From: a virus
Lineage: Duplodnaviria > Heunggongvirae > Uroviricota > Caudoviricetes
Virus record (IMG/VR): IMGVR_UViG_2541047708_000006
Strand: one strand, 5' to 3'
Length of the DNA: 58,959 nt
Position 1 is the first letter of the stretch, and each line of letters begins with the position of its first letter. This document shows, one piece after another, positions 3,905 through 37,180 of this stretch. The notes under the pieces are model-generated. The model was not told the origin of the DNA and made no database searches. It saw nothing but the letters and a program-made list of their open reading frames with translations. The position numbers and the translations under genes are program-made.

Positions 3905-4495
3905 ATGTCTCGAATTTTTGCTTACTGTCGGATATCAACTCTGGATCAGACCACCGAAAATCAACGCCGGGAAATCGAAAGTGCAGGTTTTAAAATCAAA
4001 CCTCAGCAAATAATCGAAGAACACATTAGCGGCTCAGCAGCAACCAGTGAGCGTCCTGGTTTTAACCGGTTGCTTGCTCGCCTGAAATGTGGTGATCAAT
4101 TGATTGTGACAAAACTGGATCGCCTTGGTTGTAATGCAATGGATATCAGGAAAACAGTGGAACAACTGACCGAAACAGGTATCAGAGTGCATTGCTTAGC
4201 ATTGGGGGGCATTGACCTGACCAGTCCAACAGGAAAAATGATGATGCAAGTAATTTCAGCAGTCGCTGAATTTGAACGAGACCTTTTACTTGAACGCACT
4301 CATTCCGGGATAGTAAGAGCCCGGGGCGCAGGGAAACGTTTTGGTCGACCACCTGTGTTAAATGAAGAACAGAAACAGGTGGTATTCGAACGAATTAAGT
4401 CAGGTGTAAGTATAAGTGCCATTGCCCGGGAATTCAAAACCTCGCGGCAAACCATTTTAAGAGCCAAAGCAAAACTTCAGACACCTGACATATAA
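3905..4495 (+). CDS. pin: Serine recombinase, DNA invertase (Pin/Gin/Hin family)
   Basis: 196 aa; N-terminal catalytic serine motif YCRISTLDQ; C-terminal HTH; adjacent to tail fibre genes. Confidence 0.9.
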
Positions 4496-4722
4496 AAAAT
4501 AATCTCGGTGTGAGATGCTTTACGTCTTCCAAGCCCCCTTCCTTGCCGTAAATGGAAAGATACATCTAATTATAGAATTTATATGTTTTACCCTACGGCA
4601 GTGCTGGCCATTCAATATCCTGTGCAGTTGACGTATCAACACGGTTCAGCAACACCCGATACTTTTTCCAGGCTTCCAGCAACGGGGTTTCTTCCTCCGT
4701 TGCATATACAGCTCACCTTTTT

Positions 4723-7422: not shown

Positions 7423-10400
7423 TCAACTGATACTGATACCGGCTGTAGATTTCTTCATCACAACAACAAGAAGGTCGCTGATACTGGTCGTTGGCGTCCA
7501 GTTATTAGCACCATATGAAGAAACATTGAAAGTCAGGGTGACATGGCCGTGTCCGGCAGGCATATCAATGACTGATGAAAATACCCTGCTGACATCCGTC
7601 GCGGGTTGCTGAAAGATTTCCTGTCCGTTCTTCAGTACCTGCAGCTTACAGGTTGAATACCAGTATGACTGTTGGTTGTTGCTGTTGAAGTTTTCATGCT
7701 TACCCCCACGAAACAGAACGGGGGGGACTACTATCTGACGGTCAAAAGCCTGGTCATCGTACACAGTGACCGTTATTGTACCGCTGGCATAACTGCCATT
7801 TCTCGGAAAGGCTTTTCCCACCGTTTTGACAATATCACCTTCAATCTGGTTAGCTGACAGTTTTCCCAGAATCCGACAGTTCTGATTAATCGTGACGTTG
7901 TTGAGCGTCCCGGAGTTCGCGTTCACGTTACCGCTGATATCCGCATTTTTCGCAGAAAGTCGACCATCAGGTGTCAGTGAAAACGTTGGGGGATTGCCAC
8001 CGCTGGTAATGGTGGGAGCCGTCAGATATTTCAGGAACACTTCGTTCATGAATATCTGATCGCCCTGCCCAACAAACATCGGCTTTGTGTTGCCATTCGC
8101 AGGATTAATCATCGCAATCCTGTCCGCCGCCAGCAGCACCTGACTCTGCATACCGTCAGGAGTATTCTCAATACCGGCACCAATACCCGCGATATAAAGG
8201 CGTCCGTCCTGCATCTGCTGCAGCTTCACAGCCCACATGCTGTTCAGGTTATTATTTGTATCAACCTGAACCTTCTGTATCTGCTGGATCGCTGCACTCT
8301 GGTCTTCCAGTTTCTTATTGACGGTCTGCGTGATTTCATTGCTGACACCCGTAATGGACGTCCTGATTTCAGCCAGGTCAGGCGCAAGCTGACCGTTATC
8401 AATCTGCGTCCACAACTCCTGAGCCAGATGGGTTTTCCCTATCTCTCCTTTGAAAAAATTCAGATAGCCGGATGCATCATCACTCGGCTGGCCAACAGCC
8501 TCCACAAATGCCGATTTGCCAACGGTGTTCACACTGCGGATGTAAAAATAATAATCATGGCCCGGTTTGATATTGATACTGGCGGCTATCCAGTACAGCG
8601 CCGTGCCAAGATAGCGTGCTGTGGTTTCAACCTGCCTGATATCCGCAATCCGCTTTTCCGAGAACCAGAACTCAAACTGTACCGTCGGATCATAAACCGC
8701 AAGATGCGGCGTGGCGGTTATCTGAAAATACCCCGGTGTCAGCTCAATCTGCGACGGCGCTGCCGGTGCGGCAATCCGGAACGATACCGATGCCGGATCG
8801 CCCTGCTGCCCCCACGCATTTACTGCCCGGACTGTCAGCCTGTAGTTCCCCAGCGCCAGTTGTGTGAAGCGGTATGTGGTTTCCGCCGTCCGGGCTGTGC
8901 TGACCAGCCGCTCACTGCCGTCATCCGCTGCCACGGTCAGGCGAAGCATGAAACTCACGCCCTTCACCACCTTCGGCGTGTCCCAGCGGGCCAGTACCTG
9001 ATACTCCCCGCTGTCTGCGGTGACTTCGGCAGTCAGGTGCTGCACTGCTGGCGGCGTGACACCATTCACCGTGCCGCTCTGGTCGCCGTCAAAGTGCGCC
9101 CCGTTATCCACGATGGCTTCTTTTTCCGGTACATGCTGCACGGCGGTGATGGCATACGTGCCGTCGTCGTTCTCACGGATACTCACGCAGCGGAACAGGC
9201 GCTGGCGCAGCGTCGGCAGCTTCAGCCCCCACACGCTGTATCCGGCAACGCCGTCAGGAACACGGCTAACTTTCACCTTCACGCCGTCGGTGACGGACTG
9301 GACCTCCACGCTGACCGGATTGCCATTTCCGTCAACCAGGCTTATCAGCGTGGTGCCGGAGGATGGCAGCATGATTTCACGGTCGAGCGTCAGTGTCCGC
9401 GCCTGGCTGTTCACCGCCAGCACGCGCCCGCCGATGCTGATACCCGCATAGTCATCATCGCAGATTTCAATGACATCGCCCGGTACATGGCGAAGCCCTT
9501 CTGCGCCCACGCTGAAGTCCACGGTCTGCGTTTCCAGCAGCTCCGTTTTAATCAGCCACAGCCCGGCGCGGTGTGCCTGCCCCCGACTGGTACAGCCAAA
9601 GGCATCCATCTTCGTGACGTTACGACCGTAACGGGCAATGGCCTGCGTGTCCTCCACAAGCTCTGTCGCCGTCTCCCAGCCGTTATCCGGGTCAATCCAG
9701 TTCACCTCAACGGCATTATGGCGGTCTTTCAGGGCGCTGAAGCTGTAGCGGAACGGCGCACCATCATCCGGCATCACCACATTACTGCAGTTATAGGTCC
9801 ACACCTTATCCGATGGTCGGTCCTGCACGAATGTCAGCGTCTGTCCGTTCCATACCGGCATACAGCGCATCGCCGAGCAGAAATCACTGAGCACATCCCA
9901 CGCCTTACGCTGTGTGGTCAGCCAGGCATTACAGGTGATGCGCGGCTCCGTGCCACCAAAGCCATCCGGCACCGACTGGTCGCAATTCTGGCCGATGACA
10001 TACAGCGCCCATTTGTCCACATCCGCCGCACCGAGACGTTTCCCCATGCCGTAGCGCGGATGGGTCAGCATATCCCACAGACACCAGGCCATGTTGTTGC
10101 TGTATGCTGGCTTAAACGTTCCGTCCCAGATACCGCTGTATTGCCGCGTCTGCGGGTTATAGTTCGACGGCACCTGCAGAATGCGCCCGCGAAGATGATA
10201 ATTACGGCTCACCTGCTGACTGCCGAACTGTTCCGAGTCCACCTGCACGCCGACCAGTGCCGTGTTCGGGTAGCACTGTTTCACATCGATGATTTCGGTG
10301 TATGACGACCAGAGCGTTTTGTTCTGCAGCTGGTCTGTGGTGCTGTCCGGCGTCATCCTGCGCATCCGGATATTAAACGGGCGCGGCGGCAGGTTACCCA

Positions 10401-19253: not shown

Positions 19254-20033
19254 TTACGCCAGTTGTACGGACACGAACGCATCAGGGTCAGCCAGCAGCA
19301 TCAGCGGTGCTGACTGAATCATGGTGAACTCACGCGCCGGATCGCCGGTGGTCACCCAGTTTTTCGGGTAGCGGGCAGAGGCGTTAATACCTTCGCGCTG
19401 TGCGTCCGCATCCTGAATGCAGCCATAGGTGCGCAGACCGCGTGCCTGAGTGTTCCCCAGCACCATCGTGTTGTCCGGCAGGAAGTTCTTTTTGACGTCG
19501 TTTTCCACGTACTGTCCGGAATACACGACGATCGCCGTATCGCCATACATCCCCTTATAGGACACCGCTTCGCCCAGGTCTTTTACCGCTGTCTCCAGCT
19601 CGGAATTAGAGCCGCGACGGGTATCCAGCTTCTCCTTGACGGCTTTGAAGGAACGGAACAGCGCCCAGCCTTTCGGATCAAACACGATGATATTCACCAC
19701 GCCGCTGGCGTTCAGCGCGTAGGCTTCGATATCGTCGGTCGGGTCATACGTGGACTTGTCACGCTTGCTCCACTCCGTACCACCGGACTGTGTGATGTTG
19801 TTCGCCGCACTGCGGCCCATATCCACTTCAACCGGATCGAAGGCTTCACCGGTCATGGTGTATTTGCCCTTAAGCACGGCAGAAACTGCCTGCATCTCTT
19901 CGACCTGAGCAATGGCCAGCTCTTCGTCTCGCATGTTCTGCATGATGATGCGACGGCGGCGGTAAGCCGGGTCCGCCAGATTCTGTGGATCTTCATCCGG
20001 CAGGCGACGCAGGGTCATCTGCGGATTCACCTC
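19254..20033 (-). pseudogene. E: Major capsid protein E, 3' portion (codons 83-341) separated from its 5' portion by the inserted satellite
   Basis: Translation EVNPQMTLRRLPDEDPQNLADPAYRRRRIIMQNMRDEE... matches recalled lambda gpE from residue 83; no upstream start; stop codon 3 codons upstream of junction. Confidence 0.9.
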
Positions 20034-20034
20034 A

Positions 20035-20044
20035 TGCTTGGGTT
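20035..20044 (+). repeat. Satellite att core, left copy (TGCTTGGGTT)
   Basis: Identical 10-mer at 30768-30777; lies exactly at the break in gene E. Confidence 0.8.
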
Positions 20045-20203
20045 ACATGAGTCAATGGTGTAAGTATGTGAATGATATAAGAGGAAAAATAGAGCATAAT
20101 CTCTACCTGAATGGCTATGTTGCAATACACACTGCAATACACAGAAATCAATGTACAAACCATTCAATTATCAACCCACAAATGAAGTGAATAAAGATTT
20201 GTT

Positions 20204-20965
20204 ATGAATATTATAGATACCCTTCAAAATGACCTAGAGCGCGCAGTAGCGCTTCAAAACATACTAATTGCAAGAGCTACAGGAGCCCAGGATGAAGCTA
20301 ATAATGATTATTTGCTTCTAAGAACATATTTCTTACAAAATCCTCCTTTACATCAGCTATTACCAGAGTTTGTGAGAACTAATCGCTCACTAAAAGAATT
20401 TTGGGGATTTATAAAAAAGACTGAAAAGTATGCCCCCCGGAGAGATTTGATTTATAAGGCATTTCAGCCGATGCTGGACTATCTAGAAGGGAAAAATAAA
20501 GCTCCAGCGGATGAAGACATATCTGATGTATTAAGAAAGTTTAACGAGGATGGAGTCCACGCCGTTTGGATAAAAGCACTTGAACGGCGCCATACAGATC
20601 CGGATGGTGCGATAACCTCCGCAAGAACACTTCTTGAAACAGTTTGCAAACACATTCTTGATGATATGGGCATTCAGTATAATAATAAAAATATTGAAAT
20701 GTCAGAGCTTTATAAAACTCTTTCAAAAGAACTTAACCTATCTGCCGACCAACATACTGAAAATATCTTCAAACAAATTCTCGGCGGTTGTTCTGCAGTT
20801 GTAAATGGGTTAGGTACTCTTCGTAATAAACTCGGTGATGCACATGGAACGAACAGCTCATCAATTAAGCCATCCCCAAGGCATGCCGAACTTGCAGTAA
20901 ATTTATCAGGCTCAATGGCTCTTTTTTTAATTAACACTTGGTTAAACCTTAAAGATGGGAAATAA
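20204..20965 (+). CDS. HEPN-type Abi_C-like (abortive infection C-terminal domain) protein
   Basis: 253 aa, AT-rich; C-terminal motif LRNKLGDAHG (R-x6-H) typical of HEPN/Abi_C. Confidence 0.7.
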   Translation: MNIIDTLQNDLERAVALQNILIARATGAQDEANNDYLLLRTYFLQNPPLHQLLPEFVRTNRSLKEFWGFIKKTEKYAPRRDLIYKAFQPMLDYLEGKNKAPADEDISDVLRKFNEDGVHAVWIKALERRHTDPDGAITSARTLLETVCKHILDDMGIQYNNKNIEMSELYKTLSKELNLSADQHTENIFKQILGGCSAVVNGLGTLRNKLGDAHGTNSSSIKPSPRHAELAVNLSGSMALFLINTWLNLKDGK

Positions 20966-21187
20966 CGTATAATGAAGTAACACGAGCAATTAGTTAATCA
21001 TTATACTCAGTCGATTAATTTATTTTGACGACTCGTAAGCAATTTTTCGATGAGGGCGGAACTCCGCCCTCGGTGCTAACCTATGAGAAACGATATCTCT
21101 TCCACCGATACCATAATATTAGGTATCGCGAAGAAGCCCCAAAATCAGTGTGTTGCTTTTACTACCCAAACTACCTGTAGTTTCATA

Positions 21188-21213
21188 GTCGAGTTGCAAA
21201 TTTGCAATTCGAC
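21188..21213. promoter_or_regulatory. 26 bp near-perfect palindrome (candidate operator)
   Basis: GTCGAGTTGCAAATTTGCAATTCGAC; one symmetric mismatch pair. Confidence 0.4.
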
Positions 21214-21367
21214 TACCAGCCACAAGGCGTAAATTTGCGTCGTCAGGAATATCAACGAGTTAGCATATGAATAGGCCAAACGGCCACAAACCTCACTTTT
21301 GAGGCTTGCTCATTTATTAGCTGGCTATGGTAAGGCCCATTTTGGGGCCGTCGAGAAAATCAAAGAG

Positions 21368-21643
21368 TTATCGCCGCAGTCTGTCAGGCTTCTTCCACTG
21401 GTACGATGCAACGTTCTGGCGTTGTCCCTGCCTCCGCCTAGCTGCCAGTATAGCCAGCACTTTGGTGCGGATGACTAAGCAATCCTGTCCGTTCAGTTCT
21501 ATACCGTCACGCCACATAACCTCAGCAACCACACGAGCGTAATTTTCAGCGGTGACACTGCCCGGCTGCGTGGCCTGTTCGTCATGCTGGTGGCTGACTC
21601 CACCAGCATGGCAGATTACTTTCAGTAGTTCGGATTCAGTCAT
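21368..21643 (-). CDS. Hypothetical protein downstream of satellite TerS
   Basis: 91 aa ORF 12 bp downstream of TerS on the same strand. Confidence 0.4.
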   Translation of the reverse strand: MTESELLKVICHAGGVSHQHDEQATQPGSVTAENYARVVAEVMWRDGIELNGQDCLVIRTKVLAILAARRRQGQRQNVASYQWKKPDRLRR

Positions 21644-21654
21644 AGCGTACTACG

Positions 21655-22182
21655 TTACTTATCCTTATTCAGCTGCAACTTATCCGGTACGTTTCCTGTA
21701 CTTTCCATCAGATAATCAGCCAGTATCTGTGGGAGGTTGTCAGCAACGCCGGCACTGGCATTACAGGCTTTAGCCACTTCCTTTTTAAGTCCATCCAGCA
21801 TAGCCGGAGTCATCTGTGGGAAGCGCCTTTGCATGGTAAGCGGCAGGCTGTCCATGATAGATGAAATCTGACTCGCCAGTTTGGAAAGAACATACATACA
21901 AAACTCTGTATCAATAACGTCGCCGCGTTCGCGCTCGTTTTTAAGCTCCTGCGCCTCTGCCTGTGCTGTCAGTAATCTGATCCTGACGCGTAAAAGTTCA
22001 TCGTCATCAATATCGCCCGTTTCGTTTGTAATCTGGCTGATTGCATTGTTAACCCGATTATCTATTACACTGGCAACATCATAGAACGCCTCACGGCCCT
22101 TACGCTCGACGGGAATCACTCCCCACTTATCGAACGCAGTGGCGCTTACACGGCAACTTTTTGCCATGTTTTTTTTGTTCAT
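21655..22182 (-). CDS. Satellite small terminase subunit, divergent Nu1 homologue
   Basis: Aligns by eye with helper Nu1 (36411-36956) including C-terminal region ...LPLTMQRRFPQM...; start placed at MNKKNMAK. Confidence 0.8.
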   Translation of the reverse strand: MNKKNMAKSCRVSATAFDKWGVIPVERKGREAFYDVASVIDNRVNNAISQITNETGDIDDDELLRVRIRLLTAQAEAQELKNERERGDVIDTEFCMYVLSKLASQISSIMDSLPLTMQRRFPQMTPAMLDGLKKEVAKACNASAGVADNLPQILADYLMESTGNVPDKLQLNKDK

Positions 22183-22309
22183 CAGGTGTAATTTCATTGA
22201 TACCACAACTTAATTACTGTTTCAGGTTGGTGTATTGATTGTATTTTTCTCTTATTATTCATACAGATATAGCGAACAACAAAACCACCACCAGTCCCCT
22301 TAAAATGCT

Positions 22310-22370
22310 CATAAATAGCGAAAACCCGCGCGCCTGACGCCCCGTAGCCTGTCAGATCGCCGGAAAGGAC
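22310..22370 (-). promoter_or_regulatory. Satellite cos site (lambda-like cosN flanks, different 12-nt core)
   Basis: CATAAATAGCGAAAACCCGCG-CGCCTGACGCCC-CGTAGCCTGTCAGATCGCCGGAAAGGACCCG parallels helper cos at 37110-37175, differing mainly in the cohesive-end core. Confidence 0.7.
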
Positions 22371-22398
22371 CCGCCAGCCAGAGCAGGCCCTAATTTCA

Positions 22399-22782
22399 TC
22401 AACCAATCAGCTTATAGCGACCATCCCGTGCATTGCGGCGTACACGCTCAATCTTGAGGCATAGCGCCGCATCTGGCTTTTTTGGGACAGGTACGCGGCA
22501 ATATTCAGAAGCGCGAGGAATATTATTTATCCAGTCGATCACTTCACTTAAATACCAGGCCTTACGCCCTTCCGTAACCTGCACACGCTCCGGGAACTCT
22601 CCACTAGCCTCAAGGTTTAGCAGTGTACGACGACTCAGGGTTGTAATTTCCATCACCTGATTCATATCAACAAGGCGCTCGCTTAAACACATTTTGTCAG
22701 CGATAGCTTTTAATTCCTCTACAGCTTGATTCGGGTACATCATTTCGGCAATTGGCTTAAGGTCATTGTAATCATTCTGCAT
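22399..22782 (-). CDS. AlpA/excisionase-family HTH DNA-binding protein
   Basis: C-terminal half MEITTLSRRTLLNLEASGEFPERVQVTEGRKAWYLSEVIDWINN is an AlpA-like motif; start uncertain. Confidence 0.6.
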   Translation of the reverse strand: MQNDYNDLKPIAEMMYPNQAVEELKAIADKMCLSERLVDMNQVMEITTLSRRTLLNLEASGEFPERVQVTEGRKAWYLSEVIDWINNIPRASEYCRVPVPKKPDAALCLKIERVRRNARDGRYKLIG

Positions 22783-22793
22783 TGTATCCCCCT

Positions 22794-23135
22794 TTACACA
22801 CGAGCCAGCGGCTGAACAGAAATACCTGAGCCAACAAACGCTGCAACCTTTACTGACAGTTCTTTAACAGACTCAGGCCAGTTCAGAGCATCAACATTTA
22901 AGACACCTGTCTTATAGACCTGAGCCTGTGTTTTTTTCGCGGTGTCGATTTGTACAGCGGAAACATAAACCGCTTTACCTACGCTCGAACCATCCCATAC
23001 TACCAGTGCACCTGTTGCATCTTCCTGCATCAGTGGCGTAAATGCAGGAATTACCCCTTTATTAGCTGAAAATATCCCCAGCGTAGTCACCAGTGCTTCA
23101 GTGCCAGCCATGAGTTCAGTGTAATGAGTAGCCAT
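22794..23135 (-). CDS. Head decoration protein, divergent gpD homologue
   Basis: 113 aa; shares TPLM, LVxWDG, AxVGxxAV, LxWP, AFxG blocks with helper gpD (31068-31400). Confidence 0.7.
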   Translation of the reverse strand: MATHYTELMAGTEALVTTLGIFSANKGVIPAFTPLMQEDATGALVVWDGSSVGKAVYVSAVQIDTAKKTQAQVYKTGVLNVDALNWPESVKELSVKVAAFVGSGISVQPLARV

Positions 23136-23144
23136 TGCTCCCCC

Positions 23145-24191
23145 TTAGCCAATGCGAACGGTAACAAAACGATTGATGCGGGCCGGTATTGGCTGTGGTG
23201 CTGAATGTGTCTGCACATATTCAATAGCCGGATCACCAGGCACAATATAGTTTTTCGGTGCAAGTTCGGCTTTAGTCAGCCCCATTCGGATTAGCTCCGG
23301 ATCCTGAATACCGCCATAGGCGACAATCCCCTGAAGAGCCGTATTGCCAAGCACCATCAAATCAGGATCAAGGAAATGTTTTTCTGTTCCGTCCTCGTCG
23401 GTATAACGCCCGCTGTAAACAACAATCGCAACATCGCCCATATACCCTTTAAAACTCACCGAATCACCAAGGTCTTTAAGGGCCGTTTCCAGTTCGGAAT
23501 TAGAACCACGACGGGTATCCAGAGCCTCTTTTATCGCTCTGAATGAACGGTATTTCTTCCATACATTACCGCCCATAATGATAATATTAGTGACGCCCTC
23601 ACTAAATTCTGCGTAGCTCTCAATATCATCATTTGGATCAAAAGTTTCTTTATCCTTACCTGACCACTCAGCACCGCCAGACTGAGTGATGATATTTTGT
23701 GGTTTAATATTCCAGTCCAGCTCATAACGTTCAATACCATCGCCCTCAATGATATTTTTCCCCGTTGTGATTGCCTGAACGGCAAGCCATTCAATACGTG
23801 CACGAATAGCTTTAGCCTGATTTACAATCGCCTGTTTAACTTTAATATTACGCGCTCCAAAAGCATTGTATTGCTCAGGTGATACACCAACAGGGCGCAC
23901 AGCTAACTTATTTGGATCAATGCTGCTTTTCGGCTTCATATAGCCTGGACGAATTGTTTTTGATTCGTACCCTTCGTCACGTGAAACTTTACTACCCACC
24001 ATAGGAGAACAAAACGCTGCAATTGGGATATTTGGATCGTCGATTGTATCAAGAATAATATCGCGCGATTCAAACATTACCGAGCGAGTAAAAAACAAAC
24101 TGGTAAACAACGCATTTAGTTGTTTTTGTACATCTACAGCATTAACCACCTGTACAAGCTGGGTAGGCGAATATAAATCAACCATACGCAT
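23145..24191 (-). CDS. Major capsid protein, divergent gpE homologue
   Basis: Start placed at MRMVDLYSPTQL; C-terminal two thirds align with gpE (ITQSGGAEWSGKDKETFDPNDDIESYA..., LDTRRGSNSELETALKDLG...). Confidence 0.8.
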   Translation of the reverse strand: MRMVDLYSPTQLVQVVNAVDVQKQLNALFTSLFFTRSVMFESRDIILDTIDDPNIPIAAFCSPMVGSKVSRDEGYESKTIRPGYMKPKSSIDPNKLAVRPVGVSPEQYNAFGARNIKVKQAIVNQAKAIRARIEWLAVQAITTGKNIIEGDGIERYELDWNIKPQNIITQSGGAEWSGKDKETFDPNDDIESYAEFSEGVTNIIIMGGNVWKKYRSFRAIKEALDTRRGSNSELETALKDLGDSVSFKGYMGDVAIVVYSGRYTDEDGTEKHFLDPDLMVLGNTALQGIVAYGGIQDPELIRMGLTKAELAPKNYIVPGDPAIEYVQTHSAPQPIPARINRFVTVRIG

Positions 24192-24402
24192 CCTCTTTGC
24201 ATTCATTAAAAATAATTGTGGATATATGCTATCACCGATATTTGTCATGCGAATACATGCAACCGAGTGCAATGTTGTATAAAGTTTTGGGATAACAACT
24301 TCAGCGCGGATAATTAGTGTTAATATCTTCACTCCCTTTGGTCGGGATTTATGTAGCATGCCGGAAAATTTATTTTTTTCCGGCCTTTTTTATTGGCAAT
24401 AT

Positions 24403-24852
24403 TTAAAACGGAATATCATCTCCCCATTGTTCATTATCTCCCACTGGTGGATGGCTTCCTTGCTGATCTGCCTGTTGTTTTGCTCTGTTCAGTGCGTCAG
24501 TAGCCTGACCCTGTTGACCTTTTTTGCCGCCCGGTCGCACCGTTCGCGCACTGATTACGCTGTCTGCGATAACCTGCCAGCCCTGCCGCGTTTCACCGTT
24601 CTGTCCAGTCCACTGGCTCACCTGCATATTACCCGCCACGCTCAGGAGTTCGCCTTTGTGATGCTTTGCCAGCGCGTCGGCTTGTCTGCCAAACGCCAGG
24701 ACAGATAACCACATCGTCGCCTGACCGTCATCCGACTGACTGCAGGGCAGTGATACCGCCATACGCGCCAGCGTCATGGGGGTGCCCTTGCTGGTCTGTT
24801 TTGTCTGCGGGTCGTCCACCAACCGCCCGTAAACTGATATTTGCGCCGTCAT
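24403..24852 (-). CDS. ssb: Single-stranded DNA-binding protein
   Basis: OB-fold-like N-terminal region, Gly/Gln-rich linker and acidic C-terminal tail ending DDIPF. Confidence 0.85.
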   Translation of the reverse strand: MTAQISVYGRLVDDPQTKQTSKGTPMTLARMAVSLPCSQSDDGQATMWLSVLAFGRQADALAKHHKGELLSVAGNMQVSQWTGQNGETRQGWQVIADSVISARTVRPGGKKGQQGQATDALNRAKQQADQQGSHPPVGDNEQWGDDIPF

Positions 24853-25094
24853 GCTGCCTGCTCTCCGGACTTAATATTGATTGTTGCCACTTCCTCCGCT
24901 TCAGCAATCTCCCGTTCGGTCAGAGTGGCAAAGTTTGCAGCCGCCGTTGTCATGAATGCGCTAATCAGTTCGGGATGTGCTTTCGCGTATCCTTCCCCGG
25001 CGTTGCGGTCGATGATTTTTATCGACACCCTTAACCAGTGTTCCGTCAAATCAAGGGCGTGCGATTGTGATTTTTTTGTGTGCTTCGCTGTCAT
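24849..25094 (-). CDS. Hypothetical protein
   Basis: 81 aa ORF between iterons and ssb, overlaps ssb start by 4 nt. Confidence 0.4.
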   Translation of the reverse strand: MTAKHTKKSQSHALDLTEHWLRVSIKIIDRNAGEGYAKAHPELISAFMTTAAANFATLTEREIAEAEEVATINIKSGEQAA

Positions 25095-25146
25095 AGGCTT
25101 TATCTCACAGCAGTAAATTAAAATTTTTGCGTTTTAACCCTTCACC

Positions 25147-25368
25147 TGTTCACCTTTTGATATTTTCTCTTTTAATTCATAATGTTAATGGGTGAACAGT
25201 TTCACAAAAACTATTCACCAACTGTTCACCACTGTTCACCCTTGAAGCTCAATAAACAATCAAAAAGGTGAACAGTGAATAGTTTGGTGAACAGTTCATA
25301 AATAACTGTTCACCCTATAATATACTGATATAAAAGATATTTATGACAGGGTGAACAGTGGTGAACAG
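25147..25368. repeat. Satellite replication origin iterons (GGTGAACAG / CTGTTCACC, about 9 copies, both orientations)
   Basis: Repeated octamer TGTTCACC, the motif bound by phage P4 alpha protein at ori/crr; immediately downstream of the primase gene. Confidence 0.8.
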
Positions 25369-25381
25369 TTATTCCATAAGT

Positions 25382-27202
25382 TTAATTTTTGCTATCGTCA
25401 TTAGTGACCGATACACATGATGGCATCCAGTCTTCTGATTCCTCCGTCAGTGTCACGTTTGAACGCAAACCGTGCTTCGTTTTCCGTTTCATATACTCCC
25501 TGCCATATTCCGCCATTGCCCCCGGCATATCTTTACCGAAGCGCGTCAGTGTTACAGGTTTACCAAACCCATGTGCCCTCATATAAGCCAGATAGGCATG
25601 ATAGAGATACCTGCGTGGGCTGAATGGCACAATTTCAGCATTACCCACTAACAGGCCATCACACATTACCGATGCCATGAGATAGCCGCAGAAGTCCACC
25701 AGCGAATCCCCCTCTCGCTTTATCGCCAGTGCTTCTTCAGATTTCTGCTGCTCATATAACAGGCGTCTGGCTTCGTCCTGATCAGCAAACCGTGTAAGCA
25801 GATGGCGAATCACTACCGCCAGCTCACCTTCTATTTTTTCCGCCAGCATCGAATCGCGTTCGTTCTCCGGTACAACTTCCGAAAAATTGAATATCACCCG
25901 ACGACGTGAGATCCCCCCGCTGCGGTCACTGAATGACATGGCGTTATTGTTAACCGCCAGCACTACTGCCGGAATACGCGTTGAATAGGGGGCTTTGTGT
26001 TTCGGGTCAATTGCCACCTTGTCACCGCCTGTAATGGCCTTAATCCCTGCCCCATCACCAGCGTAGCGGGTCATATCCGGCATGATAATCAGCGAAAAGC
26101 CAACCACTAACGCACGTTCCCTTGCATCTTCCAGCGCCTTCATGCTTGCTGATACTGTATTCGCCTTACCCGCCAGCATGGTGCAAATCTCCGCCATCAC
26201 ACTTTTACCACTTCCCCCCGGCCCTGTTACCTCAATGAATAACTGCCAGTCGTACCGGTTCGCCAGCACCATGAATAATGCCGCCAGTACGCGATCTGCC
26301 TTGCGGTCATTCTCAGCCACCGAACGGCGCAACCACTTCCAGAAATTCGGCGCATGTGTTGCCAGCGTTTCCCCCTCTGCTGGTGGGCTGAAAGGTAATT
26401 CACTGGCAATTAACAACCAGTCGTTTTTGTTATGCTCCCGAAAATTACCAGTTCTGGTATCAAATACCCCGTTACTGAATCCAATCAGGTTACGGGCTGT
26501 ATTCCCCATTACAGGCAAACTTAACTTCATGGTATCTACCGCCGATTTAATGGCGTTCTGCGAATAGCTGATCTCCGCATCAATGAAAATCTGCGCCATA
26601 GCACGCTGTAACTCTTTATCCTGAACCGGCTCCCATACAACGCCGTTGTAATGATGAACGGTGTCAGAGTCGGCATTGATTGCCAGTTCGCCGCCGTAAT
26701 GTGCAAGGAGAACTTCACCGCGCTGGCTGGCCCCCATCTGATTCAACGCCAAAGATGAAGCACGCTCGTCATTTTTGCGCTCTGCCTTCTTCACTGGCAG
26801 TTCAATCACCAGACTTTCCCCATGCTCCGCTTCAGCTTTTAGGCCGACAAGGCGCGGAGTCCAGTCTTCAGGCTCTCGATCAACAAAGCTACGGTAACAA
26901 CGTGCTTCCTTTACGCCTGCAATAGCAAGTAATGTCGCAACCTTCGTCAGACTTTTCTCTGCAATCTTTCCGGCACGATAAACACGCACATAATGACGGC
27001 CTTCATCGATAATTTGCATATCATCCAGGTTTTCCAGTTGTTCCGTACCCAGAATGACTGGTGGTGTATCATCTGCTGCAATATGCTTACCTGCCCATTC
27101 ATTCCATTCTTTTGCATGGCTCCAGGCATCACTGCCAGCAAAAATGATGACTTCCGTCATTTTGTCGCGCGGTTGGTATTTTAAGTTCGGAGCACGTTTC
27201 AT
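25382..27202 (-). CDS. P4 alpha-like primase-helicase
   Basis: 606 aa; Walker A GPGGSGKS in the central region; position next to TGTTCACC iterons. Confidence 0.85.
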   Translation of the reverse strand: MKRAPNLKYQPRDKMTEVIIFAGSDAWSHAKEWNEWAGKHIAADDTPPVILGTEQLENLDDMQIIDEGRHYVRVYRAGKIAEKSLTKVATLLAIAGVKEARCYRSFVDREPEDWTPRLVGLKAEAEHGESLVIELPVKKAERKNDERASSLALNQMGASQRGEVLLAHYGGELAINADSDTVHHYNGVVWEPVQDKELQRAMAQIFIDAEISYSQNAIKSAVDTMKLSLPVMGNTARNLIGFSNGVFDTRTGNFREHNKNDWLLIASELPFSPPAEGETLATHAPNFWKWLRRSVAENDRKADRVLAALFMVLANRYDWQLFIEVTGPGGSGKSVMAEICTMLAGKANTVSASMKALEDARERALVVGFSLIIMPDMTRYAGDGAGIKAITGGDKVAIDPKHKAPYSTRIPAVVLAVNNNAMSFSDRSGGISRRRVIFNFSEVVPENERDSMLAEKIEGELAVVIRHLLTRFADQDEARRLLYEQQKSEEALAIKREGDSLVDFCGYLMASVMCDGLLVGNAEIVPFSPRRYLYHAYLAYMRAHGFGKPVTLTRFGKDMPGAMAEYGREYMKRKTKHGLRSNVTLTEESEDWMPSCVSVTNDDSKN

Positions 27203-27486
27203 TTGTTACCTCCGGCAACTAACATTGCCCGAATTTTACGGATATAGCCTGCGGCACGCCTCTGATTATCTGTCTTGCAATTTTTTACCAGAATGAAATC
27301 TCTTTCGAACTGCTGACGCGGCATAACACATTCAAAATCATAACCATCACGCAAATAAGAGACACGACGATCATCAACCGAAATAATCTTTACCCGATAG
27401 CCATAGCTATCTTTGAAAATATCCCCAAGGCTGATTTTTGAATGAGTTTGACCGCTGGCAATAAAGCCAGAAAATTTATTTTTCAT
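27199..27486 (-). CDS. Hypothetical protein
   Basis: 95 aa, overlaps primase start by 4 nt. Confidence 0.5.
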   Translation of the reverse strand: MKNKFSGFIASGQTHSKISLGDIFKDSYGYRVKIISVDDRRVSYLRDGYDFECVMPRQQFERDFILVKNCKTDNQRRAAGYIRKIRAMLVAGGNK

Positions 27487-27489
27487 TTT

Positions 27490-27714
27490 TTATTCTCCGG
27501 TATAGCTCTGGTCGTGTATTTTTATAGCTTCATCCAGCTCTTTGATGACAGGATCAAGTAACGTAATTAACGCTCCAGCTAAATTAGCATCCCGTTCATC
27601 GTGTTCCGCATTTGTTGTCCCATCAAGCCAGGTTGATAAGATTTCTCGCATATTTTTGCCACAAACGAGCGCGTTTTCAGCATGTGTCAGCACTTTAAAA
27701 TAAAGATCATTCAT
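27490..27714 (-). CDS. Hypothetical protein
   Basis: 74 aa, acidic; tightly packed in operon. Confidence 0.5.
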   Translation of the reverse strand: MNDLYFKVLTHAENALVCGKNMREILSTWLDGTTNAEHDERDANLAGALITLLDPVIKELDEAIKIHDQSYTGE

Positions 27715-28072
27715 GGCACACCTCCTGACGAATACGGGCGGCGAACATCATCACGCAGCCAGTTGGGGATTGCTGGCGGGCTTCCTGTTCGCTGGTGGCC
27801 TCGATGGTAATCACGCGCGGTTGTGCCGTACTCAGGGCGATAAAACGCCAGATGAAATTGTTTTCACATTTCTGAATAAACAGCGTGTTTTCTTCCCGCC
27901 CTTTCCAGAAAGCCGCAGTATAGCCCATCTCCTTAACCATCTTGCGCGCATCAACCAGCGTGTCAGCGGCTACATGTACCGTAGTTGCTCCATCTGCTAT
28001 GCGATCGCGATGTAGCGCCAGAAAGATGTATATAAATTTAGGGTGAGTTTGGGTATGCTGTGTTCCAGCCAT
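27707..28072 (-). CDS. Hypothetical protein
   Basis: 121 aa; first gene of leftward satellite operon. Confidence 0.5.
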   Translation of the reverse strand: MAGTQHTQTHPKFIYIFLALHRDRIADGATTVHVAADTLVDARKMVKEMGYTAAFWKGREENTLFIQKCENNFIWRFIALSTAQPRVITIEATSEQEARQQSPTGCVMMFAARIRQEVCHE

Positions 28073-28103
28073 AGTCGTTACTCCAGTTAACGGTTTGTGG
28101 TTA

Positions 28104-28208
28104 GACGCCCTAGGTGTGTTGCGAGCACCCTAGGGCGTTGTTTATAGGTATAACATCATGTTAATGTGTGTACCTATTCAACACTGATGCTAAGCAATAG
28201 GTACACAC
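28104..28208. promoter_or_regulatory. Divergent promoter/operator region with two inverted repeats
   Basis: GACGCCCTAGGTG...CACCCTAGGGCG and GTGTGTACCTATT...AATAGGTACACAC; the second abuts the ATG at 28209. Confidence 0.4.
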
Positions 28209-28403
28209 ATGTCAACTACAATTCAAAGAGATAAGCAGCCAAAAGGAGCCGGCAAAGCCCCTGCGTTTCAGATCCGAATCAATCCTGAACTCAAAGAACA
28301 GATGGCTGAATCAGCAGCTCAGGAAGGAATGAGCTTGGCCAATTGGATTAAAGAATTAGTTCGTGCTGAGCTTCGCCGTAAAGGTATAGAACCTAAAGGC
28401 TAA
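28209..28403 (+). CDS. Ribbon-helix-helix (Arc/CopG-like) small DNA-binding protein
   Basis: 64 aa; FQIRINPELKEQMAESAAQEGMSLANWIKELVRAEL fits beta-strand/helix/helix pattern. Confidence 0.6.
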   Translation: MSTTIQRDKQPKGAGKAPAFQIRINPELKEQMAESAAQEGMSLANWIKELVRAELRRKGIEPKG

Positions 28404-28435
28404 TTTTTTTAATTTTTATTGAATAGGATATTCAA

Positions 28436-29119
28436 ATGACTCCAACTCCTGACGATGCTGTATTCACTGCATCAAACATTATAAATTTCTTCGTGGCACT
28501 CGGGACTTGCACAGCAGTGTTAGTTGCATTAATTGCTAAAAAGCAATCATCTTTTGAATCAACATTTTCTCTCATGTTATCTCAACATAACAATGCTCTA
28601 AATGATCTTAGAAAAAAATCAAATTACTCAGAGTTAATTAATAAAATGATGAATGGATTGGTTTCTTTAAAAGACACTAATACACTGATGCACAATCATG
28701 ATGCTGTTTTTGGAAGCTACTTCAGAATATTATATCATCTATTGAAGTTCATTGATGAAAATGCTGGATACCATCCCTTTGATCTAGATCGTAAAAAAAC
28801 CTATACAAGCCTTGTCCGTGCACATCTAGATAATGAAATAACGTATTTACTTGCAATAAACTGTGCACATGCTAACAGTGAAAATCAATATCATTTTTAT
28901 AAAACATTGATTGAGCGCTATGCCATGTTAGAACATTTAATCTTGGATAAATCAACGCTATTGGACTATACCCCTCCAGATTTAAATGAATATCAAAAAG
29001 ATTTGCGCGTAGCAACAATAGTGGTTACCGATGATATAAAAACTATTTTTAACGAGATTGCAACAGTATATTATAAGAGCGCATTTGGAAAAAACCCTGA
29101 TTTAAAAAATTTCCTGTAA
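28436..29119 (+). CDS. Membrane-anchored protein of unknown function (candidate abortive-infection effector)
   Basis: 227 aa, AT-rich; one N-terminal TM helix (IINFFVALGTCTAVLVALIA); 33 bp downstream of the RHH gene. Confidence 0.65.
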   Translation: MTPTPDDAVFTASNIINFFVALGTCTAVLVALIAKKQSSFESTFSLMLSQHNNALNDLRKKSNYSELINKMMNGLVSLKDTNTLMHNHDAVFGSYFRILYHLLKFIDENAGYHPFDLDRKKTYTSLVRAHLDNEITYLLAINCAHANSENQYHFYKTLIERYAMLEHLILDKSTLLDYTPPDLNEYQKDLRVATIVVTDDIKTIFNEIATVYYKSAFGKNPDLKNFL

Positions 29120-29145
29120 GATATAGGGAGGAATACCTCCCTAAC

Positions 29146-29367
29146 TTACCATTCACCTCTTATCCAAGCTTGAATCTCAGAGAGTCTATAAGCCACCGCC
29201 GTAGATCCGATTTTGATTCGCTTGGGGAATTTCCCCTCCTTTTCAAGCTTCCAGCGTGTGCTGTTCGCAAGAGTGGTTAGCTCCCGACATTCTTTCTCAC
29301 GGATCATTCGGTCAATGTTAGGAATGTACTCCAGCCCCTTTTTATCAACAATTGCCATTTTTTTCAT
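29146..29367 (-). CDS. alpA: AlpA-family transcriptional regulator/excisionase
   Basis: 73 aa, typical AlpA pattern, directly downstream of integrase. Confidence 0.8.
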   Translation of the reverse strand: MKKMAIVDKKGLEYIPNIDRMIREKECRELTTLANSTRWKLEKEGKFPKRIKIGSTAVAYRLSEIQAWIRGEW

Positions 29368-29368
29368 G

Positions 29369-30604
29369 CTAACCAGCCTTTTGTTTGAGGATTGTCACTT
29401 TTGAATCAGCAGCTGCGATGCTATTGAGATATGTAGTCCAGAGTTCCAGAGCATCCAGTTTTTTAGCCATAAACTTACTCCGGTTGTAAACACCTGCCAC
29501 GCCAGGTAGCGCATGGCCTAACAGTTGTTCTACTACATAAAATTCAACACCGAGATCACTTAGATGAGTAGATAGCGTTCTTCTAAGGTCGTGTAGTGAC
29601 CATTGTTTTTCATGGCCCAAACGTTTACCGATTTTCCCCCCAATCTTGCTTACGCTTTCTCTAATTCGCAGACTTCCCAGCACATAACCAGTATGTTTTG
29701 TCTCTTCGTGAACATCCGTTACCCACTGCCGTAGAATTTCAGGTACTGGCCTGACAATTTCAACACCAGTTTTTGAGTGATCTTTCGGTACAGTCCAAAC
29801 CCAACTTTCTAGATCCCATTCGCTCCATTCTGATAATCGGGCTTCACTCATTCGACATCCAAATACTGTACAAAGCACAAACATTTTTCGCGTGTATTCA
29901 GACATTAGTTTTAAATCAGGCTCGACAAAAATTGCCTTCCAGAGCTGGCCCAGTTCGGCTTCATCCAGAACCCGATCCCGCTTACCTGCAATCTGCCCCA
30001 CATCACTCATGCGCAAATCCTTTAAAGCATCACACGTCGCGTACTGGCGTACCCGACAAAAACGAAGAGCTAATTTAGTGTCAGAAAAAACATACGCCGC
30101 CATAACTGGTGCATTACGTTTAATTCGGTCAAAACAGTCCAGCCATTCATATAGGTGAGTGTCATTTACGGGCAAATGACCGATATAGGGAAAGATATGC
30201 TTTCGAAATCTGCCAAGCGTTACAGCATGAGTTTTACGACGCACCTTACAGTAATTTTCATACCAGTAATTTAGTGCATCCTCCACTGTGACCGGCTTTA
30301 AGCGTTCTTCAGCCTGAATCTTAATCTGAATACGCGGATCACGTTTGTCAGCCAACCAACCACGGCACTCGTCGCGCTTTTCCCTTGCCTGTTTGAGTGA
30401 CATATCAGGATATTTACCCAACGTTAGCCAGACCGGAGCAGCCCGGCCACCTGCTAACCTGTAGAAGAAAACAAAGCTCACAGCCCCCTTGGTACTCACA
30501 CGAATAGAAAGCCCCTTTCCATCAGCAATGGTGATCTGCTTTTCTCTAGGTTTCCCCAGATATCCTTTAAGTGCTTTGTCGCTCAGTTTGTTCTCGCCAG
30601 CCAT
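29369..30604 (-). CDS. int: Tyrosine integrase (P4-like)
   Basis: Start placed at MAGENKLSDKALK (ORF track extends 44 codons further upstream); C-terminal HDLRRT...GH...Y catalytic signature; adjacent to att core. Confidence 0.9.
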   Translation of the reverse strand: MAGENKLSDKALKGYLGKPREKQITIADGKGLSIRVSTKGAVSFVFFYRLAGGRAAPVWLTLGKYPDMSLKQAREKRDECRGWLADKRDPRIQIKIQAEERLKPVTVEDALNYWYENYCKVRRKTHAVTLGRFRKHIFPYIGHLPVNDTHLYEWLDCFDRIKRNAPVMAAYVFSDTKLALRFCRVRQYATCDALKDLRMSDVGQIAGKRDRVLDEAELGQLWKAIFVEPDLKLMSEYTRKMFVLCTVFGCRMSEARLSEWSEWDLESWVWTVPKDHSKTGVEIVRPVPEILRQWVTDVHEETKHTGYVLGSLRIRESVSKIGGKIGKRLGHEKQWSLHDLRRTLSTHLSDLGVEFYVVEQLLGHALPGVAGVYNRSKFMAKKLDALELWTTYLNSIAAADSKVTILKQKAG

Positions 30605-30766
30605 TTTTAGCCCCAAAAAGCAATACAAGCTGCAATACAGAGATGATTGCAACACACAGATAACGAGGAAAATCCAGTGAAAGCGCCAGATAAACTTACT
30701 CTTTATTATCAAAAGATTAAGTGTAAAAACCAGCAACTACACGAAAGCCTCAGAAAGCCATGCTAA

Positions 30767-31012
30767 GTGCTTGGGTTTGACATATCCCGGTGTAAATTCA
30801 GAGGTGGAGCCGCCACGGGATCGGATAACCTCACCGGAAACAATCGGCGAAACGTACAGCGCCATGTTTACCAGTCCCGGAATTTGTGAGAGATAGACTT
30901 TCTCCGTGGTGAAGGGATAGCTCTCACGGAAAAAGAGACGCAGAAACAGCGGATCAAACTTAAATTTCTTCTCATTTGCCGCCAGCAGCTGGGCGGTTGT
31001 GTACATCGACAT
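30767..31012 (-). pseudogene. E: Major capsid protein E, 5' portion (codons 1-82), reads into satellite and stops after 9 foreign codons
   Basis: MSMYTTAQLLAANEKKFKFDPLF...GYVKPKH matches recalled gpE N-terminus, then LAWLSEAFV-stop. Confidence 0.9.
30768..30777 (+). repeat. Satellite att core, right copy (TGCTTGGGTT)
   Basis: Identical to 20035-20044. Confidence 0.8.
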
Positions 31013-31067
31013 AAAAAAATCCCGTAAAAAAAGCCGCACAGGCGGCCTTTAGTGATGAAGGGTAAGG

Positions 31068-31400
31068 TTAAACGATGCTGATTGCCGTTCCGGCAAACGC
31101 GGTCCGTTTTTTCGTCTCGTCGCTGGCAGCCTTCGGCCAGAGCACATCCTCATAACGGAACGTGCCGGACTTGTAGAACGTCAGCGTGGTGCTGGTCTGG
31201 TCAGCTGCAACCGCCAGAATGCCAACGGCAGCACCGTCGGTGGTGCCATCCCACGCAACCAGCTTACGGGTGGCGGTGTCCAGCATCAGCGGGGTCATTG
31301 CAGGCGCTTTCGCACTCAATCCGCCGGGCGCGGTTGCGGTATGAGCCGGGTCACTGTTGCCCAGCGGCTGGTAATGGGTAAAGGTTTCTTTGCTCGTCAT
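31068..31400 (-). CDS. D: Head decoration protein D
   Basis: [27 protein letters not shown]... matches recalled lambda gpD. Confidence 0.95.
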
Positions 31401-31409
31401 AAACATCCC

Positions 31410-32709
31410 TTACACTGGTGTGTTCAGCAAATCGTTAACGGCATCAGATGCCGGGTTACCTGCAGCCAGCGGTGCCGGGGCACCCTGCATCAGACGATCC
31501 AGCGCAGTGTCACTGCGCGCCTGTGCACTCTGTGGTGCTGCGGCCAGAATGCGGCGGGCCGTTTCCACGGTCATACCGGGGGTTTCAGCCAGCACGCGTG
31601 CCTGTTCTTCGCGTCCGTGAGCCTCCTCACAGTTGAGGATCCCCATAATGCGGCTGTTTTCTGCCGCAACCGCTGCGGTGATCTGCGCGTTCACGTCCGG
31701 CTGCGCCGCGCTGGCGTTTTCGCCCTCCGTCGCTGGCACCACGTCAGTAACGTCAGCCTGCGAAGCAGTGGCTGAAACAGTTGTTGATTGAGTCTCTTTG
31801 GTCATTCGCCCTCCTGAGAGACGGGATTTACGTGCATCCAGTGCATCACGCATGACGGTGATCGCATCGGTGCTGTTAACAAGTTCATCAGCCAGTCCGG
31901 CATCAATGGCCTCCTGACCGCTGTACACTGCAGCCTCGGTATCCAGCACAGCCTGCACGGACAGGCCGGTATATGCCGACACCTTCTGCGCAAATATCCG
32001 ACGGGTTGCATCCATCCGGGACTGCAGTGTCTCCCGGACGTCATCCGGAAGATGGCTGTAGGGGTTGCCATCCACCTTATGGCTGCCGCTGTAAATCAGC
32101 GTGATTTCCACGCCCTGTTTCTCCAGCGCAGCACCGTAATTACTGTGAGCCATCATGACGCCGATGGAGCCTGTCCGGGCGGTCTGCGTGACCAGACGCC
32201 GGGAAGCGGCGCTGGCAAGCAGCTGACCTGCACTGCAGTTCATGTCGTTGGCCAGCGCCCATACCGGTTTTATGTCACGCACACGGGCGATGATGTCAGC
32301 GCAGTCAAATGCCCCCGCCACCATCCCGCCGGGCGTGTCCATATCGAGCAGAATGCCGTCCACCATCGGATCGCTGGCAGCCTGTTGCAGACGGGCGATA
32401 ATGCCGTTGTAACCGGTCATTCCCGAATACGGCTGCAGCGCCCGCGTCCGGCTGACCAGCGTGCCGGACACCGGCAGCACGGCGATGCCGTTCATGACCT
32501 GATAACTGCGGGCCTGTCGTGGTCCGTCATCATTAACGGATAACGCCAGCGCCGCGGGTGCCTCTCCGGCAGTCAGGCTGTCGCCGGATACTGCATCCGT
32601 CAGGCGGCTGATCCCAAGCTGGCCTGCAAGCGCACAAAAGAAAACCCGCGCATAGGCGGGTTCAAGCATCAGCGGCTCATTAAAAGCCATGCTGGCAATA
32701 TGCGGGAGA

Positions 32710-36956: not shown

Positions 36957-37098
36957 GAAACAGTCTCACAATAAATACAGGGTCCGACATGAAAGTGCCC
37001 GAAAATGACTTTTTTAGGCGTTTTCATGTCGGACCTTTTACGGATTCGATATTAGAAAAAACAAATAGTTATGTTCGAGAAGTACCGACATGATTTTC

Positions 37099-37180
37099 CC
37101 CGGAAAAATTTCATAAATAGCGAAAACCCGCGAGGTCGCCGCCCCGTAACCTGTCGGATCGCCGGAAAGGACCCGAAAAA
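37099..37180 (-). promoter_or_regulatory. Helper prophage cos site (cosN core about 37133-37144, cohesive end GGGCGGCGACCT on minus strand)
   Basis: Reverse complement reads GGGCGGCGACCTCGCGGGTTTTCGCTATTTATGAAA..., the lambda left end; preceded by ...CCGACAGGTTACG as at the lambda right end. Confidence 0.85.

Follow-up and report, generated by a model that had tools for sequence, protein, structure and literature searches.

Positions 25139-25367 of the window, i.e., the whole 58,959-bp stretch of DNA that was analysed, are very probably the replication origin of a helper-embedded PICI of about 10.7 kb, at which the adjacent SF3 helicase-initiator reads the octamer TGTTCACC through its C-terminal winged helix. 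The evidence comes from the number and layout of the octamers, their likeness to the ori of satellite phage P4, the domains of the neighbouring protein, and the way iterons and protein change together among relatives.

The window contains 12 copies of TGTTCACC. In dinucleotide-preserving shuffles of the window, from which the expected count was taken, the octamer occurs 1.91 times on average and at most 5 times. Nine of the 12 copies lie within 25147-25367, on both strands, where the shuffle rate gives a Poisson expectation of about 0.007 copies in 222 bp. This bears out the sequence-only reading, which had reported nine octamers in both orientations over about 220 bp. Its placement of the cluster directly downstream of the gene at 25382-27202 with the Walker A motif GPGGSGKS also holds, as the gene-side edge of the cluster lies 14 bp past the stop codon of this minus-strand ORF. 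All nine clustered octamers share an extension to the 9-mer CTGTTCACC. A tenth clustered copy has one mismatch (CTATTCACC, 25211-25219) and two more have two mismatches (CCTTCACC, and AGTGAATA on the minus strand); the slots of the latter two are filled by better copies in relatives. The cluster therefore has 12 sites, nine exact and three degenerate. The remaining three TGTTCACC copies (7256, 9408 and 13613) are single and lie outside the satellite, and a second TGTTCACC cluster was not found in the island at 20035-30777. An Rfam scan of 19500-31500 with E up to 0.1 gave no RNA element matches in or near the cluster. Neither promoter-like nor terminator-like signals were found in 24700-25600, i.e., the region has no such signal of its own, which places the cluster inside an operon running from the upstream genes through ssb.

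Table 1. Parts of the proposed origin, domains of the initiator and neighbouring genes of the island.
Feature	Position	Strand	Remarks
Left-module outer iteron pair	25139-25154	+	Degenerate CCTTCACC (25139-25146) abutting exact TGTTCACC (25147-25154)
Left AT-rich spacer, candidate unwinding element	25155-25190		Conserved TTCATAATGTTAAT beside lone iteron
Left-module lone opposite iteron	25191-25198	-	
Left-module iteron triplet	25212-25240	+	TATTCACC at 25212, TGTTCACC at 25223 and 25233; spacing 11 and 10 bp
Central spacer, dyad centre of the inverted modules	25241-25266		
Right-module iteron triplet	25267-25293	-	Exact at 25267 and 25286; degenerate AGTGAATA at 25274-25281
Right-module lone opposite iteron	25307-25314	+	
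Right AT-rich spacer	25315-25349		IHF-like motif TATCAGTATATTA on minus strand
Right-module outer iteron pair	25350-25367	-	10-bp spacing
C-terminal winged-helix origin-binding domain	25421-25711	-	aa 498-594
D5_N and SF3 helicase core	25793-26716	-	aa 163-470, Walker A GPGGSGKS
N-terminal domain of about 135 aa in place of alpha's primase region	26798-27202	-	aa 1-135
Single-strand DNA-binding protein gene	24403-24852	-	Downstream of origin, same operon; same order in EcCICFT073
Conserved 81-aa ORF, phrog_1231	24849-25094	-	Between origin and ssb
DUF4222 gene	27199-27486	-	Overlaps initiator gene start; same position in EcCICFT073
alpA, canonical	29146-29367	-	Next to int
int	29369-30604	-	

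The 12 sites form two mirror-image six-site modules (Table 1), in each of which an AT-rich spacer of 43-44 bp separates an outer pair of sites from a lone opposite site followed by a triplet. With the gene read as the plus strand, the order is 2 direct sites, the AT-rich spacer, 1 opposite site, 21 bp, 3 direct sites and a 26-bp centre, after which the mirror image follows. Distances between sites are mostly close to multiples of the helical turn (10, 11, 21 and 43-44 bp). The two spacers are the AT-richest DNA of the region, with 13% GC at 25160-25189 and 20% GC at 25320-25349. A non-iteron motif, A[AT]CA[AG]NANGTTA, is found by the lone site (25168-25190 and 25318-25332) and is conserved in all aligned origins, including a counterpart in P4 (L001) at 9361-9375. 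The motif resembles the IHF consensus WATCAANNNNTTR, with a perfect match in the E. coli variant L003. It might be the site of a bend by which the outer pair comes to lie beside the inner sites.

The RefSeq record of P4 lists 'ori type 1 repeats' both in ori (9310-9413) and in crr (4291-4590), which lies directly 3' of alpha, and these repeats are TGTTCACC or near copies of it. The sequence-only reading had named the window octamer as the one bound by P4 alpha at ori and crr, and it is identical to the 'ori type 1 repeat' of the record. We take it that alpha binds this octamer, based on the annotation of the record and the PDB entry 1KA8. The similarity to ori also extends to the arrangement of the sites. 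The six sites of P4 ori are oriented - - - + - - and spaced at 10/11/22/43/10, while the spacings in the window are 10/11/21/44/8 for the left half, read on the reverse strand, and 7/12/21/43/10 for the right half. P4 ori and each window half are thus the same module, i.e., three sites, one opposite site, an AT-rich stretch of about 35 bp and two sites. In a MAFFT alignment, P4 9298-9425 is collinear with window 25255-25380 and with the reverse complement of 25135-25252, also across the spacer bases beside the lone site (TTCACCC.TTAAC.T.ATG). However, P4 ori has a single module, whereas the module of the window is doubled and inverted at one site beside the gene.

P4 crr has the same octamer and the same position relative to the gene as the window cluster, but its layout differs. 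It consists of two direct 120-bp repeats with 2 sites, a spacer, inverted sites and 1 direct site, and the number of inverted sites per repeat is 2 as annotated in the P4 record and up to 4 when degenerate copies are included. The window modules, on the other hand, are inverted and have the order 2-1-3. Since the layout matches ori and the order of octamers in crr is different, the alignment identifies the window cluster as two inverted P4 ori cores sitting in the crr position of P4, and each module as a homologue of the P4 ori core. A motif scan and a comparison with P4 ori and crr had been proposed as checks of the sequence-only reading; they return an enriched cluster of which both halves align to P4 ori. 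Its suggestion of a P4-type origin thus stands for the octamer and for the ori layout, present twice and inverted, but not for the crr layout or the primase. Other differences from P4 are found around the origin. The crr of P4 lies several kb from ori, while the window island has a single compound cluster and no separate crr. P4 has type 2 repeats beside ori, and the window has none (CAYTTAAAGY is absent). Additionally, P4 morphogenesis or regulatory genes, such as the sid, psu, delta and epsilon set, were not found among the scanned island ORFs, which include lambda-type head and packaging genes instead.

Pfam assigns three domains to the 606-aa product of the ORF, namely D5_N at aa 163-292, the SF3 helicase core (DUF5906) at aa 326-434 and Pox_D5 at aa 497-592. 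We take PDB entry 1KA8 to be the origin-binding winged-helix domain of P4 alpha. In a search against the PDB, aa 498-594 matched this entry, deposited as 'putative P4-specific DNA primase' (E=1.9e-24), and residues 238-441 matched 7OLA, the SaPI5 PriRep self-loading helicase (E=2.6e-10). By BLASTP, aa 149-596 are 51% identical to residues 323-771 of P4 alpha, covering its helicase and origin-binding parts. The match to 1KA8 and this identity show that the initiator was rightly described as alpha-like. The label 'primase', on the other hand, is unsupported. Pfam and NCBIfam assign Zn_Ribbon_Prim (aa 30-66) and Toprim (aa 210-299) to P4 alpha, whereas both are missing from the window protein, of which the first 148 residues have no Pfam or NCBIfam match; an hhalign comparison of the N-terminal profile to alpha aa 1-340 gave a probability of 0.8%. 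An unrelated domain of about 135 aa is found there instead. This domain has an alpha/beta fold that is at most weakly Toprim-like, and the catalytic acidic motifs and the Zn ribbon are absent. Its homologues form a conserved module of about 135 aa with invariant IFAG, D44, P48, R73 and AG77-78. E. coli also has proteins in which this module is fused to helicase bodies of a different kind.

The relatives used for comparison comprised 80 loci from one-genome-per-species contigs in addition to L002 (an induced Klebsiella or E. coli element), the E. coli variants L003 and L004, and EcCICFT073 (L085). The gene has the twelve-slot layout on its 3' side in Escherichia, Klebsiella, Raoultella, Kluyvera, Pectobacterium, Enterobacter, Lelliottia, Erwinia, Pseudocitrobacter and Oceanisphaera. 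In 18 representative origins this layout is constant, while the octamer has changed in every slot together, giving the lineage types TGTTCACC, TGTCTACC, TGTATACC, TGTTCAT(A) and TGTA(T/C)A(G/C), the last including TGTATAG. Among five origins of the TGTTCACC type, the iteron columns are 83% conserved compared to 57% elsewhere (Mann-Whitney p=1e-8).

One part of the initiator, at aa ~571-585 (KRKTKHGLRSNVTL), varies with the iteron sequence. The segment after the last helix of the binding domain reads 'KRKTK.G[IL]RSN' in proteins with TGTTCACC ('KRHTKQGIQTN' in P4), 'KR..CT[KR]GPDKGR.I[ST]N' with TGTCTACC, 'KERKNRGMVTN' with TGTATACC and 'KERKTRGVVTN' with TGTTCAT. The comparison with L004 illustrates this. 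Each 30-residue bin of aa 151-570 is 83-100% identical between the two proteins, whereas identity falls to 20% in aa 571-600, and it is precisely the octamer that distinguishes the two origins (TGTTCACC vs TGTCTACC). The link between segment and iteron is nevertheless not one-to-one, as EcCICFT073 has TGTCTACC but a segment unlike that of L004. From standard winged-helix topology, the variable segment should be the beta-hairpin wing; the placement follows this general topology, a single-sequence model of the C-terminal domain having a pLDDT of only 38. The near-identical initiators of Pseudocitrobacter faecalis (L077) and Escherichia sp. ESNIH1 (L079) differ by two residues at the predicted wing tip (KNRGM vs KTRGV) and have origins with TGTATACC and TGTTCAT, respectively; the two thus form a minimal pair, provided by nature, in which specificity could be studied.

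Three different N-termini are found on one and the same body of helicase and binding domain, i.e., the PICI-type of 135 aa, the P4-type and a third type. The P4-type with Zn ribbon and Toprim is found in Xenorhabdus, Photorhabdus, Pantoea, L016 and L074, and the third, unrelated N-terminus in Pectobacterium, Serratia and Lelliottia (loci L014, L017 and L021). In Pectobacterium, proteins of the third type reach 86% identity with the window protein over the part that starts at aa 153. The long-form Xenorhabdus proteins are 65-67% identical to the window protein, compared to 51% for P4 alpha, and their genes are directly followed on the 3' side by an ori-type module. The separation of ori and crr in P4 is therefore unusual within the family. 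Within E. coli, the origin DNA is present at an identity of at least 90% in 592 of 5426 complete genomes (11%), in up to six places per genome, and at an identity of at least 95% in 565 genomes. Among the matches listed, the edge of the initiator gene is the only annotated feature under the origin.

Computation gave the sites, their arrangement, the homologies and the joint variation of protein and iterons, whereas the binding stoichiometry, the melting site, the direction of replication and the source of primers are inferred. Each six-slot module may be filled by the six winged-helix domains of a single hexamer, where the correspondence of six to six is numerology. Two hexamers would then assemble in opposite orientation on the inverted modules, and the AT-rich spacers, with their 13-20% GC, would melt. 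The helicases would load themselves and move apart, giving bidirectional replication, with the SSB of the satellite coating the unwound strands. Priming is presumably performed by a host enzyme, since the initiator has no recognisable primase domain. Evidence against an active origin comes from 11capE, the one helper-embedded PICI studied, for which two of three repeats showed weak or undetectable replication once the element had excised (PMC10111431).

The position of the cluster could also suggest another function, as directly 3' of an alpha-like gene is where crr is found in P4, and copy control is a common further role of iteron arrays in plasmids. The cluster would then be a crr-like enhancer or a copy-number or incompatibility element that acts by titration or handcuffing, and the true origin would lie elsewhere. 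However, the island has no second TGTTCACC cluster, the layout of the sites fits P4 ori and not crr, and the homologous gene and region of EcCICFT073 suffice for plasmid replication (PMC6092414). We therefore consider it very unlikely that the cluster has this function in place of that of an origin, while it may have a dual role as both origin and copy control element.

Even less probable is that the repeats have no role in replication and are an operator or roadblock by which pri-rep-ssb transcription is autoregulated or terminated. A protein bound to the cluster would indeed meet RNA polymerase, as the cluster lies inside a unidirectional operon, but transcription through an origin is compatible with firing and often helpful. 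Moreover, the protein is a helicase and not a repressor, and twelve phased sites with two AT-rich spacers and homology to a mapped phage origin are the architecture of an origin. The three degenerate slots out of 12, together with the limited autonomous replication of 11capE (PMC10111431), could alternatively mean that a P4-like replicon was acquired by recombination and has since decayed, so that the cluster is only its non-functional relic. A relic is hard to reconcile with an intact gene, with iteron columns that are more conserved than the spacers, with sites that change in concert with the protein across genera, and with DNA of at least 95% identity kept in 565 E. coli genomes; this reading is thus highly improbable. 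A functional origin of the PICI remains the explanation that best accounts for these observations.

The island that carries the origin is bounded by 10-bp direct repeats, AACCCAAGCA, which are the att cores (20035-20044 and 30768-30777), and it splits a lambda E-like major capsid gene (19254-20030 and 30737-31039) at about codon 82. This position is the site E:Phage_cap_E:80, for which Williams and colleagues reported 'helper-embedded PICIs' (PMC10111431), and the window island has this same helper-embedded configuration. The presumed helper is a lambdoid prophage located beside the tmRNA gene (698-1060) and not at icd. It has an exact lambda cosN (AGGTCGCCGCCC) at 37133-37144. The exact lambda cosN is absent from the island, which has a cos-like segment at about 22300-22375 that is 85% identical to the cos flanks of the helper (37097-37175), and several positions of its 12-nt core, CGCCTGACGCCC, differ from the helper core. 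Scans of the island ORFs identified lambda E-like capsid, D-like decoration, Nu1-like terS, AlpA, SSB and Abi-like genes. With E-like, D-like and Nu1-like genes and a cos-like site in the island, the earlier description of a satellite that combines P4-type replication with lambda-type packaging is a fair one.

The Nu1-type small terminase gene (21655-22206, minus strand; PF07471, E=1e-24) adjoins the cos-like site. Between the decoration gene and the cos-like site there is also a second, longer AlpA-family gene of 127 aa (22399-22782, minus strand). The DUF4222 gene was considered as a counterpart of P4 Cnr (ORF106) and rejected, as similarity is absent. Genes of low GC are found at two places on the opposite strand. 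At one there is an AbiJ/Abi_C-like gene (20204-20965, +; PADLOC AbiJ E=2e-21, Pfam Abi_C E=1e-23), and at the other a putAbiC-like gene (28436-29119, +; PF16872, E=3e-16) that follows a small RHH/HicB-like gene (28209-28403, +). These low-GC genes are candidates for anti-phage cargo of the satellite. Just inside the island ends, GCAATACA..CTGCAATACA repeats are found at 20122-20145 and 30620-30643, and these are probably arm-type binding sites of the integrase.

The site-by-site match to the P4 ori core and the absence of the primase domain were not found in the searchable literature and appear to be unreported. A full-text literature search for bare TGTTCACC gave unrelated primer sequences only, and iteron sequences are absent from the supplements of PMC6092414. 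A detailed match to P4 ori combined with an initiator that has no primase domain is a useful refinement and not a surprise. It shows that the origin organisation of PICIs is not unique to PICIs. It also corrects the annotation of a feature that is very common in E. coli and yet goes unannotated, the adjacent gene of which is named 'DNA primase family protein' in RefSeq even though it has no detectable primase domain.

The replicons of P4 and of Gram-negative PICIs could tentatively be viewed as one modular family, built from six-site ori modules, a predicted wing recoded over about 15 residues, and a swappable N-terminal priming module. The PICI N-terminus would in that case be a catalytically dead domain, either derived from Toprim or unrelated to it, which recruits the primase of the host and makes no primers of its own. 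We regard this as possible but doubtful. If true, P4 alpha and the window initiator could fire or disturb each other's origins in a shared cell, since the PICI uses exactly the octamer and layout of P4. P4-like elements are found in about half of E. coli genomes (PMC8628076). Cross-activation or exclusion between co-resident P4-like and PICI satellites that share the iteron can now be tested, as can the source of priming for an SF3 helicase-initiator that has lost its primase. In addition, the natural wing swaps between TGTTCACC and TGTCTACC, with more than 80% identity elsewhere in the helicase and binding domain, provide a ready system for studying how a winged helix reads an origin.

Among the closest described systems is that of EcCICFT073, the prototype for origins of Gram-negative PICIs. 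These origins are reported to lie 3' of the initiator gene and to consist of iteron sets on either side of AT-rich DNA (Fillol-Salom et al., 2018, PMC6092414). The cloned rep-ori of EcCICFT073 maintains a temperature-sensitive plasmid in E. coli DH5alpha, and deletion of rep abolishes maintenance while deletion of ori reduces it (PMC6092414). EcCICFT073 Pri-Rep is 44% identical to the window protein over its full length and has the same N-terminal domain. As this protein shares the primase-less architecture, the host evidently supplies the functions that are missing from initiators of this type. The EcCICFT073 origin has the same 2-1-3|3-1-2 slots directly 3' of pri-rep, and the gene order DUF4222, pri-rep, ori, small ORF and ssb is that of the window. 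However, EcCICFT073 uses the octamer TGTCTACC and not TGTTCACC, its wing sequence differs as well, and its second spacer is not AT-rich, whereas both window spacers are. In contrast to EcCICFT073, the window island is embedded in the capsid gene of its helper and has a Nu1-like terS; both EcCICFT073 and 11capE, the founding island, are described without terS.

The SaPIs provide a more distant comparison. Their ori also lies directly 3' of rep and has opposed iterons around AT-rich DNA, and the C-terminal winged helix of SaPI Rep reads the iterons, with two hexamers proposed to load (PMC9371898). The helicase core is detectably homologous to that of the window initiator, as seen from the match to 7OLA, but the relationship is distant. 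SaPI iterons are only 5-6 nt long and unrelated in sequence to the window octamer, and the SaPI primase is a separate or fused protein of the prim-pol type. Four features of Gram-negative PICIs, on the other hand, are found in the window. The origin is 3' of pri-rep, the iterons flank AT-rich DNA, the replicon is homologous to that of EcCICFT073, and int, alpA and pri-rep are all on the minus strand of a 10.7-kb island, where PICIs are islands of 10-20 kb with these genes in one direction. Collectively, the origin is best filed under the class already described for Gram-negative PICIs, here in a helper-embedded form (PMC6092414; PMC10111431).
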